From Patescibacteria group bacterium (GTDB taxonomy: Bacteria > Patescibacteriota > Patescibacteriia > JACRDY01), in the NCBI GenBank assembly GCA_041653535.1, contig JBAZFH010000001.1:150175-214174 (forward strand): DNA of 64,000 bases, given 5' to 3'. Positions 1,247-34,285 of this stretch are shown one piece after another. The notes below the pieces were generated by a model. The model was not told the origin of the DNA, searched no databases, and saw nothing but the letters and a program-made list of their open reading frames with translations. The translations under genes were made by a program, and so were the position numbers. Each line of letters begins with the position of its first letter. Within the stretch, counting starts at the first letter, position 1.

Positions 1247-1307
1247 TGCCTGTTGGCAGCTATTTAACTTAACACTATGGGAAGGAATTGGTCAAGAAGG
1301 AGAAATT

Positions 1308-1344: not shown

Positions 1345-1391
1345 AAAATTGGCGGAGTTATTACTTTTTTGCTAAAATAAAGACAGTTTTT

Positions 1392-4477: not shown

Positions 4478-5035
4478 ATGTTAATCGTTAAACCAAGCAA
4501 AAAGGGAATTGATCAAGCAGTAAGATGGTTGCGTGCTGGCGGTGTTATTGTTTATCCCACAGATACGGCCTATGGTTTGGGTGGAGTGATTGGTAATCCG
4601 GCAGTAGTTCGCCGGGTATTGCGTATTAAAAAACGTCGAGACCGCAAATTTACCGTTGTTTGCGCCGATTTGAACCAGGCGAAAAAATTTTTTCGGTTGA
4701 ATAAGTTAGCTGCGCGGTTGGCAAAAAAATATTGGCCCGGTCCTTTGAGTATTGTTGTTAGTTCCAGCTTTTCGATTCGGGTTCCGGCTAATAAGCTAAC
4801 GCAAAAATTGGTTAAACTTGCCGGGCGACCGCTTATCGCCACTTCGGCTAATTTGTCGGGTAATGCCGCGCCTTATAGCGGCAGAGTAGTAATTAAAGAG
4901 TTTAAAAATCAAAAGAATCAGCCGGATTTAGTAATAAACTCCGGAAAACTAAAGAAAACTTCACCATCGACAATTGTTAAGATCAGGGGCGAAAAGATTG
5001 AGGTTTTGCGGCAGGGAAGTGTAAAAATATTATAA
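4478..5035 (+). CDS. tsaC: L-threonylcarbamoyladenylate synthase (YrdC/TsaC domain)
   Basis: YrdC-like motifs: VIVYPTDTAYGLGG, K..R....P....A. 185 aa single-domain form. Confidence 0.8.
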   Translation: MLIVKPSKKGIDQAVRWLRAGGVIVYPTDTAYGLGGVIGNPAVVRRVLRIKKRRDRKFTVVCADLNQAKKFFRLNKLAARLAKKYWPGPLSIVVSSSFSIRVPANKLTQKLVKLAGRPLIATSANLSGNAAPYSGRVVIKEFKNQKNQPDLVINSGKLKKTSPSTIVKIRGEKIEVLRQGSVKIL

Positions 5036-5036
5036 T

Positions 5037-5867
5037 ATGCTTTTGGAAAATACCCTTGATGTTTTAGAACACTACGGTATTCGTCCGCGTAAAGGCTATG
5101 GGCAGAATTTTTTAGTTGATCAAGAAGTTCTTGACGACATTGTTAATAGTGCTGATTTGAAAAAGAACGACAAGGTTTTGGAAATCGGTCCTGGTTTGGG
5201 GGTTTTGACGGAACGGTTGGCGGCGGACGCGGCAAAAATTTTGGCGATTGAAGCCGATCCGTTGATGCGTAAAATATTGGTGCCAAAGTTTAAAAAAATA
5301 TTAAACGTGGAAATAATGGCTGCTGATGCGCTGCAACTATCGTCAGGAGATATTAGTGAAAAGTTGGGCGATGATTACAAGATTGTAGCTAATTTGCCGT
5401 ACAATATTACGGGAAAATTTTTGCGTAAGTTTTTGACCATGTCGCCTTTGCCAAAAAGTTTGGTTTTGATGTTGCAAAAAGAGGTGGCGGAAAGAATCGT
5501 GGCACGAAGCGGAAAAATGAGTCTGCTGGCTGTTGCCGTGCAGATTTATGGCGAGCCAAAAATAGTTCGGGTGGTGGCTAGCGAGAGTTTTTACCCGCAG
5601 CCGGAGGTAAAGTCGGCAATAATAAAAATAGTCAGGCGACCGGAGGATTTTTTCGTTAAACAAGGGGTGGATGCCAAGAAATTTTGGCAGATAGTGCGCA
5701 TTGGTTTTTCTTCTCGACGCAAACAATTGCAAAACAATCTAAGTGCCGGTCTAAAAATAGAAAAAGATAAGATAATAAAGGTTTTAAATAAAGCTAAAAT
5801 AGCAGAAAAAGCTCGAGCGCAGGAGTTGTTCTTAAATGATTGGATTAGGTTGGTTAAAATGTTTTGA
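5037..5867 (+). CDS. rsmA: 16S rRNA (adenine1518/1519-N6)-dimethyltransferase
   Basis: GQNFLVD motif, the SAM-binding LEIGPGLGVLT and NLPYNI. Confidence 0.9.
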   Translation: MLLENTLDVLEHYGIRPRKGYGQNFLVDQEVLDDIVNSADLKKNDKVLEIGPGLGVLTERLAADAAKILAIEADPLMRKILVPKFKKILNVEIMAADALQLSSGDISEKLGDDYKIVANLPYNITGKFLRKFLTMSPLPKSLVLMLQKEVAERIVARSGKMSLLAVAVQIYGEPKIVRVVASESFYPQPEVKSAIIKIVRRPEDFFVKQGVDAKKFWQIVRIGFSSRRKQLQNNLSAGLKIEKDKIIKVLNKAKIAEKARAQELFLNDWIRLVKMF

Positions 5868-5892
5868 CATAGTTTGAAAAAGTTTGTATAAT
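5864..5892 (+). promoter_or_regulatory. consensus sigma70-type promoter TTGACA-N17-TATAAT
   Basis: Perfect hexamers with a 17-nt spacer overlap the rsmA stop, ~50 nt upstream of the 5942 gene. Confidence 0.5.
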
Positions 5893-5941
5893 TATCACAG
5901 TTTGGTAAGTCAAAAAACAGGTTACCCCACTTGTTTATTTA

Positions 5942-6901
5942 TTGTATATGCCACAAAAATTTTTAGTGGAAAAAAAAGACGATTACTCGGCTGGTACGGG
6001 CGATGAAATCCCTGTAGCATTGCCTTCTCAAAAAATCGGGGTTAAAAGCGACAAACGTTTTGTCACTCTGATAGTGGTGGTAGTGATAGCGACCATAATT
6101 TTAGGTTTATGGCAGATCAAGCGCAATGTTAGTTCTCCTTTTGAAGCGCTTTTGAGAAAAAGTCCGAAAGTTGATCTATCGGCTTTAAATAAAGATTCGA
6201 ATGAGGAAGCTAAAAAAACCGATACTGACGGCGATGGTTTAAACGACTGGGATGAAACCAATATTTATACCACTAGTATTTATCTCGCTGATACTGACAG
6301 TGACGGTATTGATGACGGAGTAGAAGTGTTGCAGGGTAAAAATCCTCTTTGTCCCGAAGGTCAGGATTGCAGTTTCGAAGAATCAATAAAAAGCGATACG
6401 CAAACAACAAATACTAACGATAGCCGCCCCGTCGGTATATCTACCGATGTTTCGGGAAGCGATTTATTGCAAGATAGTTTTGCTTCGGAAGAGGTTAACA
6501 GTCTTGGCTATACCGCCCAGCAAACCAAGGATTTGGCTGCTAAGCTTCGCGACGTACTGGTCGCTGACGGCGGTATGGACAGAGCGGCTCTTGATCAAAT
6601 ATCCGACGAAGAACTTTTGGCGCAGTTTTTGGAAGTAGCGAGGCAGGATAGCGGTACCGGAGCGACAGCTAATACTAACAGCCAGACAACAACTAACACC
6701 AATACCGCGGCTGCCAGTAGCGAAACCAAAGAGGTGAGCAAGGAGGATATGATCGCCGCGGTGGACACGATGGCCGGGACGGAATTGCGACGGCTGCTAC
6801 TCGAAAGCGGTCTTGATCAGGCAGTAATTGATAAAAGCAATGATGATACTTTGCGAAAACTATTAAAAGCGGTTCTAGAAGAACAGGCTGCCAAGGAATA
6901 A
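5942..6901 (+). CDS. membrane-anchored protein with DxDxDG Ca-binding (thrombospondin type-3-like) repeats
   Basis: Single TM (TLIVVVVIATIILGLW) followed by DTDGDGLNDWDE and DTDSDGIDDGVE motifs and an acidic low-complexity tail. Confidence 0.6.
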   Translation: MYMPQKFLVEKKDDYSAGTGDEIPVALPSQKIGVKSDKRFVTLIVVVVIATIILGLWQIKRNVSSPFEALLRKSPKVDLSALNKDSNEEAKKTDTDGDGLNDWDETNIYTTSIYLADTDSDGIDDGVEVLQGKNPLCPEGQDCSFEESIKSDTQTTNTNDSRPVGISTDVSGSDLLQDSFASEEVNSLGYTAQQTKDLAAKLRDVLVADGGMDRAALDQISDEELLAQFLEVARQDSGTGATANTNSQTTTNTNTAAASSETKEVSKEDMIAAVDTMAGTELRRLLLESGLDQAVIDKSNDDTLRKLLKAVLEEQAAKE

Positions 6902-6955
6902 TAATCGAGGCAAAAAAAGTTTTTATTTTTTGGTAAAATATAGTATAATAAGGCT

Positions 6956-9900
6956 ATGCAAAAAAAGGCGAACAAAGTAATTATTAGCTTATTGCTAGCG
7001 ATTTTTTGTTTGTTTTTATTTTTACCTTGGCATAGTATTTTAGCGCAAGATTTGGGTGGAGGAGAGGTTGTTTATGGACCGGAAAATAATCCTAACCCCA
7101 TAACTCCGGCAACACCGGCTGGTGCCGCAGTCATGGTTACTGATATTATTAACAATACGGCAGCGAATATTAAAGAGGTAATAACTTCAATAAGGCAAAA
7201 GATAGTGCAAGAATTGGAAGCTTCTTTGAAGTTTTCGTTGGTCAGTTCACTGGATCAAATGTCGCGGATGTTTGCTCACGAAGTAGCGCTTAAAGTTGCT
7301 CAGGGTCGCGACGGACTTCGGTCTTTCAAAGATGCCAGAACTTGGGAGCAAATCTGGACCGACACTTGGCAGTCGGGAGCCGGTGAATTTATCGGCACTT
7401 TTTCCGAAGACTTTTTTGGCGATTCCTCGATATTATGTAATCCCAATCCTTACGTCAGATTTTTTATTACTATTTCTTTGTTTGAAACAGAAGTACCTAC
7501 GCCAAAATGCGACTGGCGTGAAATTCAAGAAGCCTATACCGGTCTTGCCGAACAAAGCCCGAAAGAGTGGTTGTCGCGTTTACAGTCTTCTTTCGAACCG
7601 AATCAGAGCGATGCCGGCGCTTTTTTGATCGCTCTTGATGAGCTGGAAAAGGAAAAAAATAAAAAAATTGAAGCTAATTTTACTCCGCTGTCAGTGGATT
7701 TTTCCGGTCGCTATCTGGATAACACTAACGCCGGAAAATTTTTGACAGAAAGCAGAAAAGATCTGGAGTGGTTTGTCCAGACGTCTTTTGTCGACATGCC
7801 TAGGGATATAGCGGTTGGTAAAAGCCTTACCGCTATTACGGTTGGTTCGATTCTTGCTCCCGCCATTCAGCAGTTTTCTCAAACCTATATATCCGAAGTG
7901 ATGAAAACAGCCCTCAAAGATTTATGGGGACTGAAAGATCCTTGTGATATAAAAGATAAAAAAGGTCAGGCGGTGATTTCTTGGTGCGACGACGATGGCG
8001 CTCACGAGCAGGGTCCTCCGGGCGGTACGGGTACCGGTTATGCCGGCAGTTATAATCAGACAGAGCAAGAAGCGCAAAATACGCTATCTTCTCTTTTGGT
8101 AACCAAAGTTAGACTGGGCGGTGAATACGATATTGTCAGCGAGCTCGCGGCTTGTCCGAATCAATATCCAAATTTGAATAATTGTACTATTAACCAGGGT
8201 TTTGCTGACGCAATTTTTCAAGAAATGACTCTTCAGTCAGCCGTGGATCAGGGGTTGGTGGACGGCAATTGGGCTTTTGGTTATAGCTCCCCGCAGACCG
8301 GTCTGGAGCCCGGTCCGGATGACGGTATTTCTCAGAGCAATATCAAAAAATTGCGAAAATATAGAATCGTGCCAACCGGTTGGGAACTGGCGGCAAATTT
8401 GATTAAGCAAATTTCAGAAGAGCAAAAATCAAACAATACCAAATCTTTACGTTCACTAATGGAAGATTTTTATAAAACCGGTCCTAATAAAATTTGCGAC
8501 GGTTTTGCCGATGACGGCAGTTTAGTTGATTCAGAAGAAAGTCCGTTTTGCGGTCTGGTTGACCCGGAATGGGTGCTCAAAGCACCGCAACAAAAATGTA
8601 CCGCCCTTGCTTACGGACCGATTCATATTACCGGCGGGATGCGTCAGGAAGATTGCGCCAACACGGTAGATTGTATTTTGGAAAACGACGACGGCAGTTG
8701 TCGTTCTTGGGGACAATGTACGCGGGAACGCAATATTTGGTGGTTTGACGGTGATAGTTGTCCGGCGCAATATGATAGCTGTCAAGAATTTGCTCGCACC
8801 TCTGATAGTCAGAAATTTAGTTATCTTAAAAACAGTTTGCAATATACGCAGTGTAATTCTGCCAACGCCGGTTGCAAATGGTATGCCGTGCAAAAAGACG
8901 GTGATAATTGGCAGAAATCATCAGGTATTTATTTCGATCGTGATGTCGAAGAATGTAATGAATCAAATGCCGGTTGTAACGCGGTAATCCGCAGCTATTC
9001 CGGATCCGGTACCAACCTGGTAGTCAACGGCAGTTTTAGCGATTATTATATCGCCAATGACGGAGATGAAAAAAATTATCATTTTTACGATTGGACTTAT
9101 AATGGTAGTGGAAAATTGGTTCCAGAAGAAGGAGACGTGGCATCTAAAGGTTCTGTGATTATTCCTGCTGGCGGTCGGATCGAACAAAGTGTTGATGCCG
9201 GATATTACCTTGGCGGCAGGACGTTCATTATGGCTTTTGACGGTCAAAATTGCGGCAGTAACACGGCGATTCAGTTTGCCGCGGTCAATACTACTCTTGG
9301 AGCCATTGCCGCTGATGCGGATTTAACGCAGTGGAATTCTTATTCCATTACTTATACTTTCCCGGCAAATACCAGCGCTCACGTCATGGATTTTAAATTT
9401 TTATCGGTTTCCGATTCATGCCATTTTGACAATATCCAAATAGAGGAAGGTAAAATCAGCAGTGGTTATCGCGAATATGGTAATAATAATATTGCCTATC
9501 TAAAAATAGCTCCGGAATATTTAAACTGTGACGGTAGCGCTACAGAGCCTGGCGAATGCGATAATTACGCCCCGACATGTTCTGCCGATGATGTTGGTTG
9601 CCAAAATTATACCGATTTGTCGGACAGTACTGTTATTCCCGGTGTAGTAACCGACGAAGATTATTGTCCTGCTGAGTGCGCTGATTATAAAACCTACAAA
9701 CAAACAGCTTCCAATTTCTTTAAAGAAAAATTTCCCGTGTATTTTATTGCCAGCACCGCTACCAGCTGTTCGGCAAAACAATCTGGTTGTGAAGAATTTA
9801 CCAATTTAGACAATTTGGCTGCCGGCGGAGAGCAAAGGGAAGATTATTCATTTTTGCGCCGTTGTCAAAAACCGGCACCATTTAGCGGTGACTGCGAGTC

Positions 9901-12900
9901 TTATTATACCTGGGAAGGCAGCGAGGCGACCGGTTATCAGTTAAAACTTTATACTCTCAAAGGCGATCCTACCGGCACTGCCGGATCGCGTTCGCCTTTT
10001 ACCATTACTGTTGTTGATCATCCGGTGGATTGTCAGGCTTATTACGGAAAACAGCCGGGAGATGAAAACTATGATGCTTTTATATCTGGAAACTGCAAAG
10101 AATTTTATGACCAAAAAGGACAGCTTTATTATCGGCTTTTAGCAGATACGGTTTTATGTACCAGCGACTGTCATCCTTATCGTTTGACTACGGTACAAAA
10201 CGGCGTTGATTTCTTTGATAAAGCTGACTGCGTCGCTTCCGGCGGATTGGTAACGCAATGTGAATATAACGGCGCTGACGGCGCTATCAACACCACTTCT
10301 TGTATTGCTCAGGGAGGTATTCACTACAACGGTATTTGCTACAATTTAAATAGCGCTAGTGCTTGTACTAGCGTGGGAGGTAATAGATTTGAAGATTATG
10401 CCAGCCAATGCCGATATTTGGCAACCGCCAGCGGCAGCGTTAAATGTTCCGCTCCTGGCTGTCAGGCGTATAAAGGTAATTTTGCCGGCAACAAACGTTT
10501 GGTTTTTGAGGACGGGTTTGACGGTGCGCAGGTAAATGACCAGTTGGTTGATAAATGGTCTGGCGGTATCGTTGTCAGTGAAGCTTATTCGGTTGGCTAT
10601 CATTCTTATCGTAATTTGGATTTAAGCAGCGCCGAGGTCACCCGTTCATTAGAAGTAAAAAATACTGACGGTAATGTAATTGATTATGAGGCAAGGCAGG
10701 GTCAGTTTTATACTCTGTCTTTTTGGGCAAAATCAATGCAGGAGAACAGTCAAATCAAAATATATCTTTCCGGAGTCATCGGTTCAGATCAAGAAAATGA
10801 TCCTTGGAGCTATTTTGACTACGGCAGTGATGATGCCGGTGCTGGTTATCAGGCGACTGTTTTTGGTAACGAGTGGCGTTATTACCAGCTTGGTCCGGTG
10901 TTTGTTGATTGGTCGGCGAACAACGCTAGTTTGGTTTTTGAAAAAATTAACAGTAATTTTTATATCGACAATGTTAAGCTGGAAGAGGTAAAAGATACGG
11001 CTTATTTGATTCGTAATAGCTGGAAAACCCCAACTGCCTGCGATCAAAATCACTCCGGGGCAGCCGCGCCGCAATATATGTTGGGCTGCAAAGCCTATCA
11101 GGACAGCAATAACGCTTTGCAATACTTCAAATCATTTACTCGTTTGTGTGAGCAATCGGTAATCGGCTGCGAGGCGGTGATTAAGACCTATAATTCTTCT
11201 TTGCCCTATCAACAGGTATTTAATCGTACTTGTTCTCTTGACGCCGCTTGTTCGCCGTGGGAAGGAGATACTAGCTGTCCTTGTTCGATTAGTCGCGACG
11301 GTGGTACGGTAGAGGTCTGTAAAGTAGCCTCCGGCGCAACCAATTGCCTTTATACTTATACTGAACCTTCGGCGATGATGACTTCTGGCGGCGCTGCCGA
11401 GGTGAATGTGGCGCACGATAAATTTATTTTTGTAGTCAATAAATCTCAGTATTCTTGTACTGCCGACGATCGTGGTTGCAGTGTCGTTGCTGAGCCGGAA
11501 GTCGGTCAAGACGATCAGTTGATTATGGATGGTAGTGGAATAAAGATTAAAGAAACAAAATATTTCCGTAACAATCCCGATAAATACGATACTGATCTTT
11601 GTACCGCCGATGCTTTTGGTTGCGACGAGTTTAGCGCGGCTGTCGAAGGGTTAAACCCGATTTATTTCAAAGATCCGCGAGACAAGCTGTGTGAGTACAA
11701 GCAGCATCCGACTTACGGTTCTTATGGTTGGTATAAAAAAGGCACAAATGAAGCGTGTCCGGAAAGTGCATATGAAATAGCCACAACCTGTCATTATGAC
11801 GCGATTCTCGGCGGTTGGAAGAAAAATCTGACAGATGATGAAGTTTGTGAGTACAAAAACTCGGCGTGGTATAACAAAGATACCGACACTCTTTGTGTTT
11901 ATAACACCACTACTCTGGCAACCAAGGTGGGAGATTGTGTTGCGCCGACTACCACTTTAGGTTGGGCAAAACAGTGTCCGAGCAAATACACCAGTTGTAC
12001 CAAATTTGTCGATCCGGTCGGTAGCTCCCAGCAAGACAATAATGTTTATTATTATTTGGATAATAATAATTTAAACCGTAATGAATGTTCTGCCGGTTCT
12101 TCTCAGCGAGAAGGTTGCGTGCTTTTCAATAATTACAACACAATTGACTGGAAATCAGCGGAAAAAAATCTTTCCTGGACGCCGCCGTTAAATAAAAGCG
12201 CGGCAGCTACTTATCAAAAAAGTGACGAGGAAGCTAATGGCAGAAAAGTGTCTCCGGTAAACTGCGCTAATGAAGCTACTGCTGGCAACGACTGGAAATA
12301 TTGCGGAGAAAACGAAGCCAACGATTTAATCAAGGTTCGTCGCGACCGTGTTTGCGCTGAATGGATTGATTGCGAAAGTACTTACGAAACTTTTGACAAT
12401 GAAACCGGTAAATTCGTGCCGATTTGTCTGAAAACCATGCCTTGCACTCAAAAAGACCCTGGAGAAGGCGAGTCCGGAGTTTTGAAATGTCGCAGTCAAG
12501 AAGCGATAAAACCGCAATACGGCGCCACGTTTATGCTTTGGGCTCCAGGTCAAAATTGTGGCAACGGATCTGTAAATACCGGTGAAGAATGCGATGATGG
12601 CAATAACACTGATGGTGATGGTTGTACTTCTGATTGTAAAAAAGAACCGGTAGTGTTTCGACCTTTGAGTAAATCCGAAGGTATGGCATCCGCGTACAGC
12701 GTTAACGGACCGCTTGATATTAACAAATATCTGAATCGTTCGCTTAAATGGGACGGCTATGAATATTCCGGTTATTCGATCGCTGATTTGCGTCCGGCTT
12801 GGTCGCTGCACCAAATCGCCAAAGGAACATGTAAAAACGATCCGAACAAGGTTTGCTATTTTAGCAAGGACTGCGGCGGCGCAGAATGCGTTTTCGGGTC

Positions 12901-15721: not shown

Positions 15722-15746
15722 CTAAAAACCTTTAGTCAAAAATATC

Positions 15747-18605
15747 ATGACGCAATGGTTTAAAAAGAAAATTTTGCAAAAAAGAACAACGACCGCGGTG
15801 GTTACGGTTTTGATTTTAGTTGTTATTTTTTTGGTCTTGCCGCAAGTAACTCACGCCTCTTCAATATCGGAAACAATGTCTGAACTAATGGCATCCATTG
15901 TTAACGGTTTGGGTAAACTCTGTGTGATGATAATTGATGCCGTGGTTTATATCGCTTCTTATGATTCTTTTGTTATTTCCGCGCCAGTGATATACGGCTG
16001 GGTGATTATTCGTGACATTTGTAACATGTTTTTTATTTTGATTTTGTTGATCATCGCTTTAGCGACCATATTACGTCGCGATAGTTATAATTATAAATCA
16101 TTACTGCCAAAAGTGTTGATTTTGGCGTTATTAATCAATTTTTCCAAAACCATTTGTGGCTTTGCTGTTGATATTGCCCAGATAGTGATGTTGACGTTTG
16201 TTAACGGTTTCAAAGACATGGGTCCGGGTAATCTGATGAAAATGGCGGGAGTGGACAGGATGTTGTCTTTTAGTTCTACGGCGGTTCAGGTCAAATCCGA
16301 AAGTGGATCAAGTGCAACGGCTGATATTAGCGATAGTACTTTCGCTATTTATTTTTATGCCGTATTGTACCTGCTGACTTTATTGGCGGTGCTTTTAGTG
16401 ATGGCAGTGATATTGATTTTCCGCATCGTAATACTTTGGTTTTTGATTGTTATTTCGCCGATATTTTTTCTATTACTATCCTTTCCTCATGGAGAAAGCT
16501 ATGCCAAAGAATGGTCTAACGAGTTTGTTAAAGCGTTAATAGTCGGTCCGGTGTTGGCTTTTTTTATCTGGTTATCAATGGCAAGCATGGGTTATATGGT
16601 AAGCGCTGCCGGTGATGGCGGTGACGCTTTATCGGTTGATTCAACTTCTGATAGCACAATAGAGGCGACGCTTTCGGCTGGCGATGGAGCTTCGGGAACG
16701 CCCGGGTTTTTTACCAATTTTTGCGTCGCGACAATCATGCTGATAGCGGGTGTAATACAGGCGCAACAAATCGGCGGTGCGGGCGGTGCGGCAGCGTTTC
16801 GTGCTGTCGGCAAGGCGAAAGCTTTGGGTTTGAAGACTGCTAAAGCTGGAATTGGTCTTACTAAAAGTGCGGTCGGAGTCGGTTGGCAGGCAACTAAAAT
16901 TGGTGCCGGTGCGGCCGCTTTATACGGATATTCGAAAACCGGTTATGATCTTTCTCAATTTACTCCAAGTAAATTAAAAGAAAGGGCAAGCGAGGCCTTG
17001 GAGGGCGCGCGTGAAAGGCTGGAGGGTAGAGGAGCTAAAGAACGGGATCGCAGAGCAGCACAAAACCTTTCAGAAGGAAAGTCTCGCATTGAGGCATGGA
17101 AAGATCCGGCAGGAACATTTGCTCGGCAGATTGCGACTAACGGTTTTTGGTCCGGTACAAAAGGGGCTGTAAAAGATATTTTTGTCGCTAAACGCAGTGC
17201 CGCAAAAATTCAGAAAGACATTGATGATGCTAATGATCAGAAAAAACAATACCAAGATGTTTCCAATAAAAGAAATGATATCAATAATGTTCAAAGCCAA
17301 AGGGAAGCCGTGAGGAGTCAGCTAGCTGATATTGATGAAAAAATCAAGAGCGGTGCATTGTCTGCCGATAAGGCGCTGGAAGCTAAGAAGCAAAAAATGG
17401 ACCTTATTTTACGTAACGGTGATTTAGAGAAAGAAGAAACTAAATTGAAAGCAGAAGAGGCATCATTACTCAGCGGTTTGAATATTAATAAAGAAATTGA
17501 TGTGATGGAGCAGCAGTTGGATGGTTTGGAGAAAGGTTATGGTATATCGGCAAATAATGATAGAAGAGCTAAACAAGCGCAAGATGCCGTTAAAACTAAA
17601 GCCGAAGCTGAAGCTCGGGGTGATAGTGCCGCTGCCGCTGCCGCTCAAACTTTTCTTGATAAAATTTCTGATTATGAAGAAACCAAAAAGACCGTTGATA
17701 GTAGAGCGGCGCTACTTGGTCAGCGCGGCGTTTTGGGTAACATCAGCAGTCTTAATCAAAAAACTAATTCTTTGAGTAAAGAGGCGGCAACGATTAAAAC
17801 CCCGTCAGAATATACTCGTGCTCGAAGAGAAGCGGTGCAAAAGTCAGTAGAAAATTTGCCAGATGATCTGAACGATGTTGACGTGATTAAACAAGCGGTA
17901 GCCGATGCTATTGGTGATCATGATGGCAGCGCTTTGGAAATTTTACTCAATAAAGCGATGCAAAACGGGCAAATGGACGATGTTTTGATGAATCAGGGAT
18001 TTAGTGCTGATGACCAAGGATTAAAAGCGCTTCGTGATAAATATATGACGGTTTCCAAAGATCAGGGTGGTATGGGTATGAAATCGGCCGAAGCTAATAG
18101 AATCATTGGCGAATTGGAACGCCTTGCTTGGACAAAGGATCACGATCATTATGCTGCTGGCGTGGTGAACGAAGCAGGATATTATAGAGACAGAACCAAG
18201 GAAGAACAAATGGCTATACGCACGCAGAAGTCAGAAAAAGGCATGGGTAAAAGTGTTAATTTTTGGCGCCAAAGCAACGGTTCCGAGCTGGGTCATTCGC
18301 GCGCCGACGGTAGTTTTGAGGCGGACACCGCTGGTTATGCTATTGTGGCTAAAAATTTCAAAACTTTAGCTCAAGCAGTTATAGCCGGAACAGCCAGCTC
18401 TCAGATGATGGGAAAACTAAAATCAATGGTTGACGGAATACAGTCTTTGGTAAGACAGGGTGTTATTGATCATAAAGATTCATCAAGGGTTGTTGAGATA
18501 ATCAGAGAATCCAGAGTTCCTGCTTCTGGTCAAAAGTCGGTGATAAAACTTTCCAGAGAGTTTAATGATTCGATAGAGAAAGCTTTAAATAAGGGAAGAA
18601 AATAA
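15747..18605 (+). CDS. VirB6/TrbL-like polytopic membrane protein with long C-terminal coiled-coil extension
   Basis: Signal/TM at the N-terminus, then ~6 TM helices in the first 330 aa. A Gly-rich linker follows, then ~550 aa of K/E/A/D-rich coiled-coil. It sits where PrgH/VirB6 sits in Gram-positive T4SS operons. Confidence 0.5.
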   Translation: MTQWFKKKILQKRTTTAVVTVLILVVIFLVLPQVTHASSISETMSELMASIVNGLGKLCVMIIDAVVYIASYDSFVISAPVIYGWVIIRDICNMFFILILLIIALATILRRDSYNYKSLLPKVLILALLINFSKTICGFAVDIAQIVMLTFVNGFKDMGPGNLMKMAGVDRMLSFSSTAVQVKSESGSSATADISDSTFAIYFYAVLYLLTLLAVLLVMAVILIFRIVILWFLIVISPIFFLLLSFPHGESYAKEWSNEFVKALIVGPVLAFFIWLSMASMGYMVSAAGDGGDALSVDSTSDSTIEATLSAGDGASGTPGFFTNFCVATIMLIAGVIQAQQIGGAGGAAAFRAVGKAKALGLKTAKAGIGLTKSAVGVGWQATKIGAGAAALYGYSKTGYDLSQFTPSKLKERASEALEGARERLEGRGAKERDRRAAQNLSEGKSRIEAWKDPAGTFARQIATNGFWSGTKGAVKDIFVAKRSAAKIQKDIDDANDQKKQYQDVSNKRNDINNVQSQREAVRSQLADIDEKIKSGALSADKALEAKKQKMDLILRNGDLEKEETKLKAEEASLLSGLNINKEIDVMEQQLDGLEKGYGISANNDRRAKQAQDAVKTKAEAEARGDSAAAAAAQTFLDKISDYEETKKTVDSRAALLGQRGVLGNISSLNQKTNSLSKEAATIKTPSEYTRARREAVQKSVENLPDDLNDVDVIKQAVADAIGDHDGSALEILLNKAMQNGQMDDVLMNQGFSADDQGLKALRDKYMTVSKDQGGMGMKSAEANRIIGELERLAWTKDHDHYAAGVVNEAGYYRDRTKEEQMAIRTQKSEKGMGKSVNFWRQSNGSELGHSRADGSFEADTAGYAIVAKNFKTLAQAVIAGTASSQMMGKLKSMVDGIQSLVRQGVIDHKDSSRVVEIIRESRVPASGQKSVIKLSREFNDSIEKALNKGRK

Positions 18606-18622
18606 GATTAAAATAAAAAATC

Positions 18623-19975
18623 ATGACAGATTTTAGCTTAACAGATTATCAAATATTGGAACAATTCCGTCGCGAGACAGACGAGATTTTAGTTACCAAT
18701 AATTTACGCGATGCGGTTAATTGCCTTACCACACTGCAAAAGACTATGGCTTATGACACAAAAATAAAGGATTACCCTGACATACTGGTTGAATATAATA
18801 AAATATTGAATAAACTGCGTTTAGTTGCTTTTGCTTCACTGGACTGGAACGAAGCTTTGTCTTTTTTGAAGAATAATTTTTTGGTTGCCCTGGAAAACAA
18901 GGAATTTATTGATCTAACCGATAAAATACGCAGCAAACTTGTTACTGTTCCGACGTTAGAGGAGAGAGATAACTATCGGATGCGTTTGCGTCGGGCGCTG
19001 ACACAAAACGGGGAAAGAATTACCTTTAAACCGTTAAAAGTAGGTGATCAGACTCAAGATCCGACAGTCGCCAACTGGCTCAAATTGTATTTGGGATCAT
19101 TGGGAGTTGAGTTGGTTAATCGCGTGACTTATCAGGGTTGGTTGTCACAAGAACAAAATATTCAGCAGTTAACGGAAGAAGAAAAGGAGAGAATAAAATA
19201 TCTTTTTGAAGTATATGAAGAATTAAAACTATCTTCCGTTTCAGTCGAAGGCTGCGAAGAAACTTTTGTTATCGATGAAGATACTGACACTCCTTTGGTG
19301 CTTTATCGCGGTAAAATAGAATCGGCTCTGCCACCGCAAGAAGACATTGATTTACTGAAAAAAATCGAAGCTGTTTTAAGCGGCAAACCAGTATCATTAT
19401 CCGCCCCAACAGGCGCGCCGTCACAGCCAGCCGTTATCTCGGCACCGATACCAGCAGTAGCAAAACCGGCAACGTCAGCTATTGATCGTGATGAGATAAT
19501 CCGTAAATATGAAGGTGATGTTAAAGAAAACAGAAGTATTGAAGACAGGATGACTCAATTTACCAAGACAACTGGCGGTAAGCAAAGAGAACTGGCAAAT
19601 AGTTTGAATTTGCTTTTGACCGGTGCTGCGCCAGATAAACTAGATATTATCGCTATCCTTTATATTTTAGCGAAAAAAAATGCGATGGAAGATTTGATTA
19701 AAGATGATGATCGTTTTTACAAGCTGGTTGAACAGGATCTGACCAGACGAGGCGGTAAACAACAACTTAATGATTTTAAGATGTATCCGACAGCACCCCA
19801 ATCTATTCGATATTTTCTTGAAGTTTTATTGCAGCACAAACTAAGGCTGTCAGAGGGTGAAGCGGCAAAGTGGGGGTTGCATATTGTTAATATTTTGAAA
19901 AAATCCGGCAATGAAAAATACGGAAAAATCGCTTATTTTGATTTGGAAGCAGGAGATTTTCGTTGGCAAAAATAG
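18623..19975 (+). CDS. hypothetical protein (T4SS-cluster associated)
   Basis: 450-aa soluble ORF in operon context with 4-17 nt spacing. No recognisable motifs. Confidence 0.5.
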   Translation: MTDFSLTDYQILEQFRRETDEILVTNNLRDAVNCLTTLQKTMAYDTKIKDYPDILVEYNKILNKLRLVAFASLDWNEALSFLKNNFLVALENKEFIDLTDKIRSKLVTVPTLEERDNYRMRLRRALTQNGERITFKPLKVGDQTQDPTVANWLKLYLGSLGVELVNRVTYQGWLSQEQNIQQLTEEEKERIKYLFEVYEELKLSSVSVEGCEETFVIDEDTDTPLVLYRGKIESALPPQEDIDLLKKIEAVLSGKPVSLSAPTGAPSQPAVISAPIPAVAKPATSAIDRDEIIRKYEGDVKENRSIEDRMTQFTKTTGGKQRELANSLNLLLTGAAPDKLDIIAILYILAKKNAMEDLIKDDDRFYKLVEQDLTRRGGKQQLNDFKMYPTAPQSIRYFLEVLLQHKLRLSEGEAAKWGLHIVNILKKSGNEKYGKIAYFDLEAGDFRWQK

Positions 19976-20084
19976 GTTTGCAGTGTTAGATCGTGAAAAC
20001 GACGGAGTAAATGGCGCAAAAAGGCATTATTATTACCCTTGCTTTTTTTGCTCTTGCGCTCTTGTCTTTTAAAAACAAGCTATT

Positions 20085-21248
20085 ATGGTAGTAACTAATA
20101 TACAAGATGAAATTTTGGTCAAAGACAGCGGCGGTAATTTTTCTGTTTTAGTTGATCAATCAAATGTCGGTTACGATGCTGTTGGAGGGTCGGCAATCAC
20201 TCCGGTATTAACCGAAGACAATTTTGATTTTTCAGCATTAATTGATAAAATAAAGGGGCAGTTTAATCTAGGCTGGAAAGACGAAGTGTTGGACCGACGC
20301 TTGTATAATATTATTATTGCCATGGTGCGCGAAGTACGCAATGATATCCAGACCAAAGACGTTATGGTCAAAAGTGTTGAAGTAGGCGGGTTGGGTTTGG
20401 AGCCTATCATTGCCGATCAGGTGATTGCGGAGGTAAAAAAAACAGCGCGACATCCAATTAAGGTAAAAGAAATGGGCAGAAAAGTTTTAAGCATGGTAAC
20501 GGCAAAAACACCGTCACATGTTTTTTCTCGTCAGGAGCTAGACCATGAGATTGCTCCACCACCACCAACTGTTGTAGTTCCAACAAAAGCAGAACAGATT
20601 AGACCAATATCGCCGCTTGCGCCGAAGCCGCCAGTGCAGTCTGTCACTTATGTTGAAAAAAATTTTTTGCCAAAAAAATCAGTACCAAGGATAGAGGAGA
20701 TAAAAAAAGAAGCAAGTATCAGTAATACGCCAAAACCAACTGCCGAACACCATCTGTCGTCAAAAGCGAAACCGTTTATGGACAGTAAGCCGCCTTTTAA
20801 GATTGATTTTGGGGTAAAAACTAAGGGTCGTAATTTTGACGGTTTAGCGTCCGCACCGCAGGCAAGAGTGGTAATGCCAAATCGAGGGGAAAAAATAACA
20901 GATATTAGAGTTCCTCAAAAAAAATTAGTTGGTCCGCTGGAAGAGCTGCAGGGGTTTCGTGTCGCCGATTTTCGTCGGCTTGACCTTGATCCGCAGAAAG
21001 CGATTTTAAAAATAAAAGAAAAAATTGATTTACTCGGCAGAGAGTCTTTTAGCAAGAGGATTGAGGGCAAAAATGCTTGGCAGCAAAGTGAAGTTAACCG
21101 TCTTTATTTGGCATTGGGAAAGGCAAGTATCGAGCAAGGCAGGTCGCTAGCTGATATTATAAAAGAAAGGTCTTTAAAACAAGAACCGACGTTAAAACCA
21201 GAAGAATTCATCGCCTTGGTCAAATTAAATCAAATTTTAGAAGATTAG
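20085..21248 (+). CDS. hypothetical protein with Pro/Lys-rich central linker (T4SS-cluster associated)
   Basis: 387-aa ORF. Central PPPPTVVVPTKAEQIRPISPLAPKPP low-complexity linker. Stop overlaps the start of the PrgI-like gene. Confidence 0.5.
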   Translation: MVVTNIQDEILVKDSGGNFSVLVDQSNVGYDAVGGSAITPVLTEDNFDFSALIDKIKGQFNLGWKDEVLDRRLYNIIIAMVREVRNDIQTKDVMVKSVEVGGLGLEPIIADQVIAEVKKTARHPIKVKEMGRKVLSMVTAKTPSHVFSRQELDHEIAPPPPTVVVPTKAEQIRPISPLAPKPPVQSVTYVEKNFLPKKSVPRIEEIKKEASISNTPKPTAEHHLSSKAKPFMDSKPPFKIDFGVKTKGRNFDGLASAPQARVVMPNRGEKITDIRVPQKKLVGPLEELQGFRVADFRRLDLDPQKAILKIKEKIDLLGRESFSKRIEGKNAWQQSEVNRLYLALGKASIEQGRSLADIIKERSLKQEPTLKPEEFIALVKLNQILED

Positions 21249-21249
21249 T

Positions 21250-21717
21250 ATGGCTCATCAGTTTTTGGTGCCACAATTCATCGACGTCGAGCCAAAAATT
21301 ATCGGTCCGATAACGGTACGGCAGTTTATTTTGATGGTAATCGCCATGGTGATAATTTTTATATTTTATAAATTTTCCACTTTTTGGACTTTTATTATCG
21401 CTACGGTTTTGATTTTAGGATTGTTTGGGGTTTTGGCCTTTGCCAAAATTAACGGTCGACCGTTTCATTATTTTATTTTAAATATCGTTGAAACATTAAA
21501 GCGTCCTCGACTGAAGGTTTGGGACAAAACATTGGATATGGAGGAAGTAAAAGCATTAATGGCTTATGGGACTCAAATAAAAAAGGTTGAACAAATAGCT
21601 AAAAAAGAGCCGTTAGCAGAGTCGCATTTGGAAGAACTGTCTTTGATTGTTAATACCGGCGGCGCCTATCAGTCTAGTGAATTAGATTTAAATTATGACA
21701 CCAGAAAAGAAAAATAA
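21250..21717 (+). CDS. PrgI/TcpE-family (VirB3-like) small membrane protein
   Basis: The N-terminus VPQFIDVEPKIIGPITVRQFILMVIAMVI matches the PrgI-family signature (vP.di..e.ki.G.t.RQ). It has two TM helices and lies immediately upstream of VirB4. Confidence 0.55.
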   Translation: MAHQFLVPQFIDVEPKIIGPITVRQFILMVIAMVIIFIFYKFSTFWTFIIATVLILGLFGVLAFAKINGRPFHYFILNIVETLKRPRLKVWDKTLDMEEVKALMAYGTQIKKVEQIAKKEPLAESHLEELSLIVNTGGAYQSSELDLNYDTRKEK

Positions 21718-22372
21718 AAAAGCTTCAACCAGAAAAGCGGTTCCGATCGGGGAAATCCGCAACGATACTTTAGTAATGAAGGATGGTACTTTGCGTGCCG
21801 TTTTGATGGTTTCGAGTATTAATTTTGCTCTAAAATCAGCTGATGAGCAACAGGCGATCATCTCTGCCTATATGCAATTTTTGAACTCTATTACTTATCC
21901 AATCCAGATAGTGATCCAATCGCGTCGGATTAATATCGATAAATATTTGGAAAAGTTGCAGAAGATGGAAAAAGAGCAAGTAAATGAATTACTTAAGATT
22001 CAAATTGTCGATTATCGCAAATATGTTTCCGAGTTGGTCGAATTAGGCGATATTATGACTAAAAAGTTTTATATTGTCATACCTTACAATCCACTTTCAG
22101 ATAAGCAAAAATCTTTTTTTTCTCGATCAAAAGATTTGCTTTCGCCAAAAACTATTATCAGCTTAAGTGAGAAAAAGTTTTTCGAAAGGGAAAAGGAGTT
22201 ATCCCAGCGTGTATCTCATGTCGCTTCAAGTCTGGGTAGTATCGGTTTAGCGGTCACTCGCGTTGATACGCAGGGTTTAATAGAATTGTTCTATAATTCA
22301 TACAATCCTGACGTGGCAGAGCATGAGAGAATGGTCGATGTGAACAAGATTCGTTTCGATAATATAACCTAA
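21695..22372 (+). CDS. VirB4/CagE/TrbE N-terminal domain protein (separate ORF)
   Basis: LVMKDGTLRAVLMVSSINFALKSADEQQAIISAYMQFLNSITYPIQIVIQSRR matches the VirB4 N-terminal domain pattern (KDGS..R...G.D..S..E..L..LN.aLrrL....v.rR). It ends in TAA 5 nt before the ATPase ORF, in a different frame. Confidence 0.65.
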   Translation: MTPEKKNKKASTRKAVPIGEIRNDTLVMKDGTLRAVLMVSSINFALKSADEQQAIISAYMQFLNSITYPIQIVIQSRRINIDKYLEKLQKMEKEQVNELLKIQIVDYRKYVSELVELGDIMTKKFYIVIPYNPLSDKQKSFFSRSKDLLSPKTIISLSEKKFFEREKELSQRVSHVASSLGSIGLAVTRVDTQGLIELFYNSYNPDVAEHERMVDVNKIRFDNIT

Positions 22373-22377
22373 AAAAC

Positions 22378-24213
22378 ATGGCAATTATTAAAGAGAAAAA
22401 AACACTTTCCCAAGAGGTGGAAAGCAGTAAGGAAGTCTTGCAAGAAGAGCAGCGCTATCGAGCGGGGACCATTTCCGTTATTGATTTAATAGCGCCGGCG
22501 GCAATGGATGTTCAACCTACTTATTTGCGTCTAGGAACAAGGTTCGCGAGAACTATTTTTGTTGTTAGCTATCCTCGTTATATCGGTATTGGTTGGTTTT
22601 CTCCGATTATAAACTTTAACCATCCCCTGGATGTTTCGATGTTTTTTTATCCGATAAAGGCCGCTGCTATTTTAAAAGATCTGAAAAAAAGAGTCGGTAA
22701 TCTGGAGGCGGAAATAATGGCTGATCGCGACAAAGGGGCTCCGCGCGATCCGATAAAAGAAACGGCTTTGCAGGATATAGAAAAGTTAAGAGATGATTTA
22801 ACTCAAGGCATAGAACACTTTTTCCAATTTGCTTTGTATGTTACTATTTACGCGGAAACAAAAGAGGAATTAGATGATTTAACCGGAGACATAGAAGACG
22901 TTTTTGGTTCTCGTCTGGTTTATTCGCGAAAAGTTTTATATCAAGCTGAGCAGGGTTTTAACTCGACATTGCCTTTTGGTCAAGATGAGTTGGCAATATT
23001 TTTTAACATGAATACCTCTCCCTGTGCCTCGTCATTTCCTTTTATTTCTTTTGAACTTTCTTCCAACGACGGCATCATGTATGGTATTAATCGCCATAAT
23101 AATAGTTTAATTATTTTTGATCGATTTTCTTTACAGAATGCCAACATGGTCGTTTTTGCCACTTCTGGCGCTGGTAAAAGTTATACGATAAAATTAGAGG
23201 TTTTGCGTAGCTTAATGTTTGGTATCGATGTTATTATTATTGATCCGGAAAAAGAGTACCTGCATCTTTGCGAGGCTGTGGGCGGCACTTATATCAATAT
23301 CTCCCTAGCTTCAAAAAGTAAAGTTAATCCTTTTGATTTGCCACGACCGATGGAAAAAGAGTTTAGCGGCGAAGACATTATTCGTTCGGCGGTTATCACT
23401 TTGAAAGGTTTAGTCAAATTAATGATTAGCAAGCTAAATTCTTCGGAAGATTCGGTGATGGACCGGGCGTTGCTAGAAACTTATGCTAAAAAAGATATTA
23501 CTCCTGATGCTAATTTAGCTGAAGTTGAGCCGCCGATTATGCAGGATTTAGTGGATATTTTAGAGGGGATGGAAGGCGGTGCCGATTTGGCTCAAAGATT
23601 GAAAAAATATACCGAAGGCACTTTTTCCGGGTTTTTGAACAATCCGACTAATGTTGATATGGATAACCAGTTGGTTTGTTTTTCGGTTCGCGACCTAGAG
23701 GATGAATTACGACCAATAGCCATCTATAACTTAGTAAACTATATCTGGAACGTTGTTCGTTCAGAGAGAAAAAAGAGGATTTTAGTTATCGACGAAGCTT
23801 GGTGGTTGATGCAAAACGAGGATTCGGCTAAATTTATTTTCGCTCTAGTTAAACGTTGCCGCAAATATTATTTGGGAGTAACTACTATTACTCAGGATGT
23901 GAACGATTTTTTACTCTCGCCATACGGTCAGGCAATAGTCAATAATTCGGCTTTACAACTGTTAATGAAACAATCGCCGGCAGCGATTGATCGGGTAAAA
24001 AATACGTTTTTATTAACTGACGGTGAAAAATATTTATTATTAGAATGTGGTGTAGGTGAAGGAATATTTTTTGCTGGCAATAAACACGCGGCGATTCAGG
24101 TGGTCGCTTCTTACGCTGAGGATCAACTGATTACTACTGACCCGCGGCAGTTGTTAGAAATTGAAGCGGCAAAAAAAGAGTTTGAAGCAGCGGGAGAGAC
24201 CGCATTACAGTAA
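22378..24213 (+). CDS. VirB4-family T4SS ATPase (PrgJ/TrbE-like), C-terminal ATPase portion
   Basis: Walker A FATSGAGKSY, the hallmark Walker B VIDEAWW, and RKYYLGVTTITQDVNDF (VirB4 motif). Confidence 0.85.
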   Translation: MAIIKEKKTLSQEVESSKEVLQEEQRYRAGTISVIDLIAPAAMDVQPTYLRLGTRFARTIFVVSYPRYIGIGWFSPIINFNHPLDVSMFFYPIKAAAILKDLKKRVGNLEAEIMADRDKGAPRDPIKETALQDIEKLRDDLTQGIEHFFQFALYVTIYAETKEELDDLTGDIEDVFGSRLVYSRKVLYQAEQGFNSTLPFGQDELAIFFNMNTSPCASSFPFISFELSSNDGIMYGINRHNNSLIIFDRFSLQNANMVVFATSGAGKSYTIKLEVLRSLMFGIDVIIIDPEKEYLHLCEAVGGTYINISLASKSKVNPFDLPRPMEKEFSGEDIIRSAVITLKGLVKLMISKLNSSEDSVMDRALLETYAKKDITPDANLAEVEPPIMQDLVDILEGMEGGADLAQRLKKYTEGTFSGFLNNPTNVDMDNQLVCFSVRDLEDELRPIAIYNLVNYIWNVVRSERKKRILVIDEAWWLMQNEDSAKFIFALVKRCRKYYLGVTTITQDVNDFLLSPYGQAIVNNSALQLLMKQSPAAIDRVKNTFLLTDGEKYLLLECGVGEGIFFAGNKHAAIQVVASYAEDQLITTDPRQLLEIEAAKKEFEAAGETALQ

Positions 24214-24230
24214 TTTTATAGAAAAAATAT

Positions 24231-24824
24231 ATGTCAAATAAAGTTAAACTAGCTTTAATGATTGGTGGTGCCGCAATTTTTATTCTTTTAGTAATTGCGC
24301 TTCTAATGCGAAATGGTACGACTGATGTCAATAATTTAAATCAAAGCACCAATCAGTTAAATAATCGGCTGCCTGAAACAAAAAATATTGTTGTTAATGA
24401 TAACAATGCCGTGGTAACCACAAAAGGTAATGCTACTACAATAACTGTCGAGCAAAAAGAGGAGATAAGCCTAGAGATAGTATCACGGTTTTTTGCTGAA
24501 AGGTTTGGTACTTATTCAAACCAAAGTAATTTTGAGAATATAAAAGATTTACAGTATTTAATGACCGAGGATGTGAAAAGTTGGTCGGAAAAATTTATCA
24601 GTCAGGGAAATATTAGCAGCGATCAATATTGGGGCGTAACTACTAAAGCGTTGGCTATTAAAAGTCAAGATATTAAAGCGGATACAGCGGTGATCGTTGT
24701 TTCTACTCAACGGCAAGAGTATTCCAGGGACGTTAATAAAGCCAAAATATATAAGCAGGATTTAAAGTTAGAATATGTAAAAAGTGACGGTAATTGGCTG
24801 ATCAGCGGTGTTTATTGGCAGTAA
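24231..24824 (+). CDS. membrane-anchored protein, possibly VirB8/PrgL-like (positional inference)
   Basis: N-terminal TM (LALMIGGAAIFILLVIALLM) plus a ~160-aa extracytoplasmic domain. It sits directly after VirB4, as PrgL/VirB8 does. There is no sequence-level proof. Confidence 0.45.
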   Translation: MSNKVKLALMIGGAAIFILLVIALLMRNGTTDVNNLNQSTNQLNNRLPETKNIVVNDNNAVVTTKGNATTITVEQKEEISLEIVSRFFAERFGTYSNQSNFENIKDLQYLMTEDVKSWSEKFISQGNISSDQYWGVTTKALAIKSQDIKADTAVIVVSTQRQEYSRDVNKAKIYKQDLKLEYVKSDGNWLISGVYWQ

Positions 24825-24871
24825 TTTGAAATTTTAGAAATTTTTAATCTGGTTTTTTCTATGATTAGAAT

Positions 24872-25525
24872 ATGAAGAAAATCAGATTAAAAGCAAATTT
24901 TTTACGAGACATTGTTTTTCCTAAAAACTGTCTGGGTTGTGCCAAAGAGGGGTGCTATATTTGTCCTCGGTGCCGAAACATGATCAAAATAGCCAGAAAC
25001 GATTTTATTGATTTTCCGGGAAAAAGATTTTTGGATCGAGTAGTGGTAACGGCTGATTATAATGATGAAATTTTACAACGAGCGATTCATTGTCTAAAAT
25101 ATCAATTTGCTACGGATGTAGCAGAGGAACTTGTCTCTTTGGTATCAGCAGATAAAATACCTTTATCTTGGAAGCACTGCGTTTTATTGCCGATTCCTTT
25201 GCACAAAAAAAGGGAACGATTACGAGGATTTAACCAAGCTGAACTTATTGCTATATTTTTATCCGAGCGTTTTGGTTTGTATTATAGAAATGATATTTTG
25301 AGTAGAATAAAATATCGTGTTCCGCAGATGTCTTTAGGTAGAAGCGAGAGGTTAAAAAATATCAAAGACATATTTTTTGTAGATAAAGACAATCTTTGCG
25401 GAATAAAAAACGTCGTTTTGGTTGACGACGTGGTTACGACGGGAGCTACTTTAAACGAAGCGGCAGAAGTTTTGAAAAAAAATGGTGTAGAAAATGTTGA
25501 GGCGATAGTACTTGGTCATGGATAA
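24872..25525 (+). CDS. comFC: ComF-family phosphoribosyltransferase-domain protein (ComFC)
   Basis: N-terminal Cys4 zinc finger (CLGCAKEGCYICPRC) and the PRTase motif VVLVDDVVTTGATL. Confidence 0.8.
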   Translation: MKKIRLKANFLRDIVFPKNCLGCAKEGCYICPRCRNMIKIARNDFIDFPGKRFLDRVVVTADYNDEILQRAIHCLKYQFATDVAEELVSLVSADKIPLSWKHCVLLPIPLHKKRERLRGFNQAELIAIFLSERFGLYYRNDILSRIKYRVPQMSLGRSERLKNIKDIFFVDKDNLCGIKNVVLVDDVVTTGATLNEAAEVLKKNGVENVEAIVLGHG

Positions 25526-33090: not shown

Positions 33091-33122
33091 ATTTTTTATT
33101 TTTTAATATTATTTTTATCAAA

Positions 33123-34277: not shown

Positions 34278-34285
34278 GGTATTTT

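Follow-up and report, generated by a model that had tools for sequence, protein, structure and literature searches.

We analyzed a 64-kb stretch of contig JBAZFH010000001.1 from a Patescibacteria group bacterium (hereafter, the window), which contains a compact run of genes for components of a type IV secretion system (T4SS). Upstream of this run, the sequence TTGACA-17-TATAAT (5864-5892, forward strand) overlaps the stop codon of ksgA (5037-5867) and matches 12 of 12 consensus positions of a sigma-70-type promoter. Promoter-like sites overall were not in excess (47 observed versus 44.5 in shuffled sequences), but no other site within the 20 kb scanned (5000-24999) matched perfectly, so that this one alone stands out; it presumably functions as a promoter. 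It is followed by ten open reading frames (ORFs) on the same strand (5942-25525), every one of them uninterrupted, with intergenic gaps of -23 to +109 nucleotides (nt); the source genes carry locus tags WC310_00790 to WC310_00815. Both the consensus promoter at 5864 and the tightly spaced, co-directional genes had been pointed out in a preliminary description of this DNA, and both hold. The core genes encode the ATPase VirB4, accompanied by a separate TrsD-like protein, together with an extended VirB6-like, a PrgI/VirB3-like, and a bitopic VirB8-like protein. A single promoter-led, compact operon thus carries the genes for the core that a monoderm (MPF_FATA-type) T4SS has in the cytoplasmic membrane.

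The VirB4 ATPase (611 amino acids [aa], 22378-24213, forward strand, as are all genes of the operon) was identified by the NCBIfam model NF045971 (conju_CD1110) with 354 bits against a cut-off of 325, by the Pfam model P-loop_TraG (E value of 1.7e-28), and by its match to the C-terminal domain of a Gram-positive VirB4 in the Protein Data Bank (PDB entry 4ag5, E value of 7e-49). Its Walker A (ATSGAGKS at residue 261) and Walker B (ILVIDEAWW at residue 468) motifs are both intact. The preliminary description had also assigned an N-terminal VirB4 domain to this protein; the ATPase and its Walker motifs were borne out, but the N-terminal domain is not part of this ORF. The NF045971 alignment spans profile positions 176-730 of 752, leaving the N-terminal part of the profile uncovered, and the domain is found instead in a separate 225-aa TrsD-like ORF (21695-22372) in a different reading frame, which matches VirB4_plasma (positions 97-228, E value of 1.3e-12), TrsD (NF041427, E value of 7.5e-8), and VirB4_CagE (positions 4-175, E value of 5.5e-6). 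The TrsD-like protein is predicted to provide the missing VirB4 N-terminal domain in trans.

A scan covering a single genome for each species found at least 391 VirB4 relatives, and the best 80 loci (L001-L080), in which VirB4 identity ranges from 70 to 84%, were analyzed. The genes for TrsD and VirB4 are distinct in 79 of 79 of these loci, which means that the split is ancestral rather than a sequencing frameshift; a frameshifted or pseudogenized VirB4 was therefore rejected. The closest plasmid-borne VirB4 proteins, CD1110-family members found in Firmicutes and Actinobacteria, share 30-36% identity with the one described here. By these similarities, VirB4 is of monoderm MPF_FATA ancestry; judged by percent identity and synteny, it groups with other Patescibacteria VirB4 proteins and not with those of mobile elements. 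The virB4 gene also contains an imperfect 51-nt direct repeat (22773-22904, 73% identity, copies 81 nt apart); a helical segment has probably undergone a small internal duplication here.

Three membrane proteins complete the core. The extended, polytopic VirB6/TrbL-like protein (952 aa, 15747-18605) has approximately seven transmembrane (TM) segments within residues 1-340, followed by a hydrophilic, coiled-coil-like C-terminal region of approximately 600 aa. Its scores against the Pfam TrbL family are 23.5-24.5 bits (E values of 5.4e-5 and 2.7e-5), just below the gathering score of 25.9, so that the VirB6-like assignment made earlier stands on topology and on TrbL being the sole family matched, albeit narrowly under the threshold. 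Among 46 VirB6-like homologs, TrbL was again the only family to match (14 of 46, best E value of 8.8e-7), and a search of PDB sequences with the VirB6 profile returned no match. The small PrgI/VirB3-like membrane protein (155 aa, 21250-21717) scores 29 bits against PF12666 (gathering score of 27), contains a hydrophobic hairpin at residues 16-56, and is present in 77 of the 80 loci, in agreement with its original identification. The VirB8/PrgL-like protein (197 aa, 24231-24824) consists of a TM helix (residues 3-26), a linker, and an NTF2-like domain (residues 73-196), which is the bitopic topology of VirB8, PrgL, and TcpC. No sequence-profile match to VirB8 or PrgL was obtained; however, the predicted structure has a confident VirB8 fold, so that a protein first proposed on the basis of its position is now supported by structure prediction. 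Its gene directly follows virB4 nearly universally (76 of the 80 loci).

Between the VirB6-like and PrgI-like genes lie two genes for cytoplasmic proteins of 450 aa (18623-19975) and 387 aa (20085-21248), previously noted as uncharacterized; neither has a TM segment or a match to a known family. In the 387-aa protein, two helical domains (residues 49-121 and 284-386) are confidently predicted, connected by a disordered, Pro-rich linker of approximately 160 aa; nothing matching was found in the PDB, and the protein has no known fold. The 450-aa protein evolves fast while keeping its position: a word-based homolog search retrieved only the protein itself, and a profile built from 21 syntenic ORFs gave no meaningful match in the PDB. 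A RhoGAP match to this protein (E value of 0.025) was weak and was disregarded, and the idea that it is a paralog of the 387-aa protein was rejected (hhalign probability of 4%).

The first gene product of the operon is a single-pass membrane protein. It (319 aa, 5942-6901, with the ATG at 5948 as the likelier start) has a short cytoplasmic N-terminus, a TM segment at residues 36-63, two thrombospondin-type-3 (TSP3) Ca-binding repeats, and a helical C-terminal part; the repeats, which are MtsD-like, match TSP3_bac with an E value of 6e-5, under the gathering score. The second product is a secreted giant of 2,921 aa (6956-15721), which, as had been described, is Cys-rich: it has a signal peptide and 113 Cys residues (112 in the mature chain), and no C-terminal or membrane anchor. 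The sole domain call to pass its threshold is the Cys-rich acidic repeat TIGR02232 at residues 1866-1898 (35.9 versus 20.8 bits), and a weak fiber/glycan-binding-like match at residues 1248-1343 fell below the cut-off. Pfam searches with the whole chain and with ten 292-aa pieces returned the Cys-rich repeat only, and the same repeat dominated an exhaustive search with the last 1,200 aa. Approximately 12 collinear giants of 2.5-3.2 thousand aa were found in a representative library. In addition, directly upstream of the VirB6-like gene, approximately 18 of 50 loci have large Cys-rich ORFs that extend past the end of the fetched flank and are collinear with the C-terminal half of the giant. In one locus (L081), the left end is fully visible and consists of ksgA, a TSP3-repeat protein, a 2,769-aa giant, and VirB6; the TSP3-repeat protein occupies the same position as the 319-aa protein and is its ortholog (27% identity, E value of 1e-32), and the two giants are 40% identical over 2,420 aa. 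A metagenome scan with the N-terminus of the giant yielded a single informative locus, which came from the same metagenome-assembled genome (MAG) as L003, and a literature search on giant Cys-rich proteins from Candidate Phyla Radiation (CPR) bacteria found nothing relevant. The giant is a candidate adhesin or surface component.

The last gene of the run (24872-25525) encodes a ComF(C)-family protein with a zinc ribbon and a phosphoribosyltransferase fold, and starts 47 nt after the VirB8-like gene. It matches TIGR00201 (comF) with an E value of 2e-32, below the model cut-off of 233 bits, and also the Pfam model Pribosyltran; it may be a functional part of the machine. Three tRNA genes and recG (26580-28682) follow.

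Approximately 5 kb downstream of the module, beyond the region initially delimited, two paralogous genes on the reverse strand each encode a 421-aa protein with a signal peptide, a Cys-rich N-terminal domain, a VirB2-like hairpin of two TM segments that is nearly identical in both, and an extracellular C-terminal domain. In the protein encoded at 29269-30534, the C-terminal domain is an M15 peptidoglycan peptidase (VanY, E value of 2.5e-8), and the hairpin scores 24.5 bits against the T4SS_pilin family (PF18895, gathering score of 26.6). In its paralog (30550-31815), the hairpin scores 25.5 bits against the same threshold, and the C-terminal domain is a different, Cys-rich one. The VanY/M15 fusion could be a cell-wall remodeler acting in place of a VirB1 hydrolase. 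In 19 of the 80 loci, pilin-domain genes occur no more than 10 kb from virB4. The same reverse-strand run continues (31852-34663) with three genes whose products have no family match above threshold: a 412-aa protein that combines a TM helix with a beta-propeller-like region, a 384-aa protein that has a low-complexity (GEEGEKE)n stretch as well as a TM region at its C-terminus, and a 125-aa soluble protein.

All ORFs of at least 120 aa in the 64-kb window were searched against protein families for mobility genes. No family match to a relaxase (MOB), a VirD4/TcpA coupling protein, or an integrase/recombinase was found among them, in line with the initial report of their absence, and the sole P-loop_TraG/AAA_10 match in the window is VirB4 itself, so that the window contains no type IV coupling protein (T4CP). 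No mobility gene is present for more than 38 kb downstream or approximately 5 kb upstream of the module. Neither att-like direct repeats nor tRNA fragments flank it; the repeats that were detected are short chance repeats, none of them at tRNA genes. An adjacent relaxase or T4CP combined with flanking att sites, which would have pointed to an ordinary mobile element, is therefore not seen within the window. Instead, the surrounding genes are housekeeping ones: RF2, an EamA transporter, an epimerase, Sua5/YrdC, KsgA, RecG, the MPG glycosylase, a Clp ATPase (ClpB), HtpX, LemA, PheS/T, DnaE, ThrRS, MiaB, MiaA, GatB, and ThyX. ComEC, ComEA, and DprA were not present in the window. GC content is even (0.36-0.45), GC skew rises monotonically across the window, and matches to DUF5667 and to PF18895 lend it a CPR flavor. 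The locus is chromosomal, lying between housekeeping genes in a reduced CPR genome, and the earlier proposal of a chromosomal, non-conjugative, T4SS-derived machine in a reduced genome is supported.

The 80 loci belong to Magasanik-, Uhr-, Falkow-, and Buchananbacteria, a group that we take to be the GTDB class ABY1, and in MAGs labeled "Patescibacteria group." Across the best 80 species genomes, the gene order on one strand is the same, VirB6–450aa–387aa–PrgI–TrsD–VirB4–VirB8-like–ComF, which answers the question of synteny raised by the preliminary description. By tblastn, VirB6 was detected in 63 of the 80 loci, the 450-aa protein in 24, the 387-aa protein in 72, PrgI in 77, TrsD in 79, VirB4 in all 80, the VirB8-like protein in 70, and ComF, directly downstream, in 67; profile searches raised the counts to 37 for the 450-aa protein and to 76 for both the 387-aa and the VirB8-like proteins. 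VirB4 is among the slowest-evolving proteins of the neighborhood: its median identity in these loci is 72%, compared with 54% for TrsD, 52% for RecG, and 57% for MPG (the single Clp ATPase match has 53%). The comparison with RecG and MPG indicates strong purifying selection on VirB4. The locus thus encodes a vertically inherited core machine, neither an integrative and conjugative element (ICE) nor a remnant of one. The best VirB4 loci include many from third-party annotation MAG records that bear the title "uncultured Gammaproteobacteria bacterium," and one from a record titled "Candidatus Binatia." These titles look like wrong or placeholder taxonomy because the same Patescibacteria T4SS synteny is present in the records.

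Systems of this kind have been described recently. According to the survey by Quinonero-Coronel et al. (2025, PMC12102498), VirB4 is encoded in 2,417 of 3,035 Patescibacteria genomes, and nearly all of these proteins form one clade nested within MPF_FATA. TrsD is the commonest neighbor of virB4, with PrgI/VirB3, VirB6, and VirB2-like genes nearby; KsgA is frequent in the vicinity, and ABY1 loci commonly contain comF, recG, and radA. VirB8 matches are few and almost confined to class ABY1. The same survey reports 109 relaxases, just 15 of them near virB4, states that VirD4-like/T4CP genes exist in most Patescibacteria, rarely adjacent to virB4 and usually far away, and already raises import of nucleic acids as a hypothesis. 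In Southlakia epibionticum, transposon sequencing by Wang et al. (2023, PMC10633639) showed that the saccharibacterial T4SS and pilin array, encoded by the cluster SEML1_0006-0019, are essential for epibiotic growth, which is also stated in PMC12857230. A coupling protein and a relaxase were not recognizable there, and the authors suggest that the system "may instead export proteins." The Patescibacteria systems also figure in a 2025 T4SS review, where they are listed with the most recent additions to the superfamily.

The locus analyzed here agrees with this picture in every system-level respect. As in the Patescibacteria-clade T4SS of the 2025 survey, the system is chromosomal; its VirB4 has MPF_FATA ancestry and an adjacent, separate TrsD-like gene; PrgI/VirB3-like and VirB8-like genes are present; a VirB6-like gene and PF18895-like pilin-domain genes lie nearby, both with scores slightly under the family thresholds; and virB4 has no relaxase or T4CP close to it and sits in the ksgA/comF/recG neighborhood of ABY1. 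The locus therefore adds one more ABY1 case to a system known from descriptions of 2023-2025 and is not a discovery; the interpretation reached in the preliminary description was correct, and it had already been the conclusion of those two papers. Four features were not found in the parts of these papers that were consulted: a VirB8-like gene with a confidently predicted VirB8 fold that near-universally follows virB4 directly (76 of 80 loci), two conserved cytoplasmic proteins without a known fold between virB6 and prgI, a recurrent Cys-rich secreted protein of 2.5-3.2 thousand aa upstream of virB6, and pilin hairpins embedded in 421-aa multidomain proteins, one of them with an M15 peptidase. 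The counterpart of these last proteins in S. epibionticum is an array of VirB2-like pilins.

Comparison with better-known machines shows both kinship and divergence. Like the MPF_FATA conjugation systems of Gram-positive bacteria, the locus combines VirB6-, VirB3-, and VirB8-like proteins with VirB4 and has no outer-membrane core (VirB7, VirB9, and VirB10). The gene order had been likened to that of the Prg systems; the set of VirB6, VirB3, VirB4, and VirB8 types stands, but the PrgI–TrsD–VirB4 core is closer to trsC-trsD-trsE of pGO1 than to prgI-prgJ of pCF10, and corresponds to the pGO1/pSK41 subclass. On the other hand, the VirB8-like gene follows virB4 just as prgL does in pCF10 (prgH-prgI-prgJ-prgK-prgL). 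Unlike the Gram-positive systems, the 64-kb window contains no relaxase, T4CP, oriT-processing genes, or integrase, and no VirB1 hydrolase of the PrgK/TrsG type, the M15 peptidase being fused to a pilin hairpin instead; VirB2-like pilin domains, which the Gram-positive systems lack, are present; and the locus is chromosomal and vertically inherited, with VirB4 identity of only 30-36%. Another comparison is with ComB of Helicobacter pylori and the archaeal Ced system, which are likewise T4SS-derived, lack a relaxase and a coupling protein, and have a link to competence factors (here, a ComF-family gene followed by recG). CedB and CedD match the ATPase domain of the VirB4 described here weakly (E values of 1.6e-13 and 7e-5), far below their cut-offs. 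However, ComB is a diderm VirB2-10 set, and the CedA and CedB proteins on which Ced relies are not orthologs of the set found here. Both of these systems take up DNA; the window has no comEC, comEA, or dprA, and DNA import by the Patescibacteria system is a hypothesis.

We consider it very likely that this is the Patescibacteria-clade T4SS. The explanation that best accounts for the locus, and in our view probably the right one, is a vertically inherited, chromosomal T4SS, in a Patescibacteria bacterium of the Magasanik-/Uhr-/Falkow-/Buchananbacteria group, that forms a conduit for contact with a host; a non-conjugative role at the host interface is likewise likely. In such a machine, VirB4 hexamers, completed in trans by TrsD, would dock on PrgI and VirB6, and the VirB8-like protein would serve as a channel scaffold across the wall. 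The pilin-hairpin proteins encoded 5 kb downstream may form or anchor an extracellular structure, for which the M15 peptidase would open the peptidoglycan, and contact with the host or the surface would be provided by the giant Cys-rich secreted protein and the TSP3-repeat membrane protein. Lineage-specific adaptors at the cytoplasmic face, the position of the coupling protein in conjugative systems, could be the role of the 450-aa and 387-aa proteins. The conduit would serve the episymbiotic life of a cell unable to make its own building blocks, and not conjugation.

What such a conduit would carry can be proposed only tentatively. Import of host nucleic acid into the symbiont is favored because comF and recG are conserved neighbors, yet it remains a doubtful possibility. 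About equally likely is export or surface display of proteins, namely of effectors or adhesins, possibly the giant or the pilin fusions, onto or into the host, which would bring about attachment and nutrient leakage with no nucleic acid involved. On the one hand, the giant and TSP3-repeat genes share an operon with the core and have conserved counterparts in a relative, the pilin hairpins carry fused extracellular domains of the Cys-rich and M15-peptidase kinds, and export was the suggestion made for the saccharibacterial system in PMC10633639, where coupling protein and relaxase are equally unrecognizable. On the other hand, the giant has an ordinary Sec signal peptide and therefore requires no T4SS for its passage through the membrane, many loci lack it, and no recognizable effector or T4SS secretion signal was found. 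A more far-reaching version of the import hypothesis, which we regard as unlikely, is that the T4SS runs "backwards" to bring host nucleic acid into the symbiont: VirB4/TrsD, the 450-aa and 387-aa proteins, and ComF(C) would replace the coupling protein and relaxase and hand DNA or RNA to recombination and salvage enzymes, and the giant and the pilin-hairpin/M15 fusions would be a new monoderm apparatus for contact and penetration. If this were true, the assignment of these particular uncharacterized proteins as subunits would be new.

Several points weigh against a host-contact conduit of this composition, and against nucleic-acid import in particular. The VirB6 and pilin assignments depend on Pfam scores slightly under the gathering thresholds. 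A giant is found upstream of VirB6 in only approximately one-third of the loci with sufficient flank, and the 450-aa protein is detectable in less than half of the loci even by profile (37 of 80). The absence of a coupling protein applies to the window, and a VirD4-like gene may sit elsewhere in the genome. The ksgA and recG genes are conserved neighbors with no evident role in a T4SS; because ksgA is equally conserved beside the operon without a plausible role, and these genomes are small, synteny backs a functional coupling of comF only weakly. In S. epibionticum, deletion of comEC abolished competence but not viability (2025 T4SS review), whereas the T4SS is essential, which means that its essential role there is not classical transformation. 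For ABY1, both the substrate and the direction of transport rest on inference.

Two other explanations of the missing mobility genes are close to excluded. One is that the module is part of an ordinary ICE whose relaxase, coupling protein, and integrase lie beyond the window. VirB4 does belong to the conjugative family CD1110, and three tRNA genes, which are classical integration sites, lie just downstream; VirD4-like genes are, moreover, common elsewhere in Patescibacteria genomes according to PMC12102498. However, an ICE with att sites at these tRNA genes was rejected, as there are no repeats and no integrase and the arrangement is syntenic across species. The module sits amid housekeeping genes in the same order in the best 80 species genomes, there is no shift in composition, no att-like repeats or tRNA fragments flank it, and no mobility gene was seen over the distances given above. 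VirB4 is also more conserved than RecG, the opposite of what is expected for a mobile element, and only 15 of the 109 relaxases in the 3,035 genomes of the survey lie near virB4. The probability that we would give to an ICE is accordingly very small. Slightly smaller still is the one for a decaying, non-functional remnant of an old conjugative element, which would account for the missing relaxase and T4CP and for a VirB4 seemingly "broken" into two ORFs in different frames. The two-gene arrangement is nevertheless found in 79 of 79 loci, with median identities of 54% for TrsD and 72% for VirB4; the Walker A and B motifs are intact, and all ORFs are uninterrupted. Furthermore, the orthologous saccharibacterial genes are essential, as reported in PMC10633639.

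The T4SS is one of the few machines that the ultra-small, host-dependent Patescibacteria have kept almost universally, and it is essential in the one cultivated model. As a clean ABY1 example, the locus leaves this general picture unchanged. Its value lies in a conserved parts list that extends slightly beyond the survey based on hidden Markov models, with the VirB8-like protein, the two cytoplasmic proteins, the giant, and the pilin-hairpin/peptidase fusions. The 450-aa and 387-aa proteins could fill the missing role of substrate receptor, and the list as a whole provides targets for structure prediction of complexes, cryo-electron tomography, and genetics in cultivable relatives.

Other genes in the window deserve brief mention. 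Between the tRNA genes downstream of comF, a 162-aa membrane protein with a weak DUF5673-like match is encoded at 25890-26378 (forward strand); in 27 of the 80 loci, it is again found a few kb downstream of virB4. Next to gatB, a reverse-strand block (58149-63570) encodes thymidylate kinase, ThyX, dUTPase, a dNMP-kinase-like P-loop protein, and dCMP deaminase. ThyX in this block is 492 aa long and contains two Thy1 domains, the result of a tandem duplication or fusion. As a set for nucleotide salvage and dTMP synthesis, the block fits an organism that lives on imported nucleotides. At the left end of the window, the RF2 ORF (1125-2498, forward strand) encodes 457 aa from a TTG start, with approximately 100 residues preceding the PCRF domain; this long N-terminus may reflect an ORF called too long or the frameshift region that is usual in prfB. 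An antisense ORF of 302 aa without a family match (338-1246, reverse strand) overlaps the RF2 ORF. Further upstream, an 86-aa ORF (25-285, forward strand) contains, as judged by eye only, a PCHRVV motif like that of O6-methylguanine-DNA methyltransferases.

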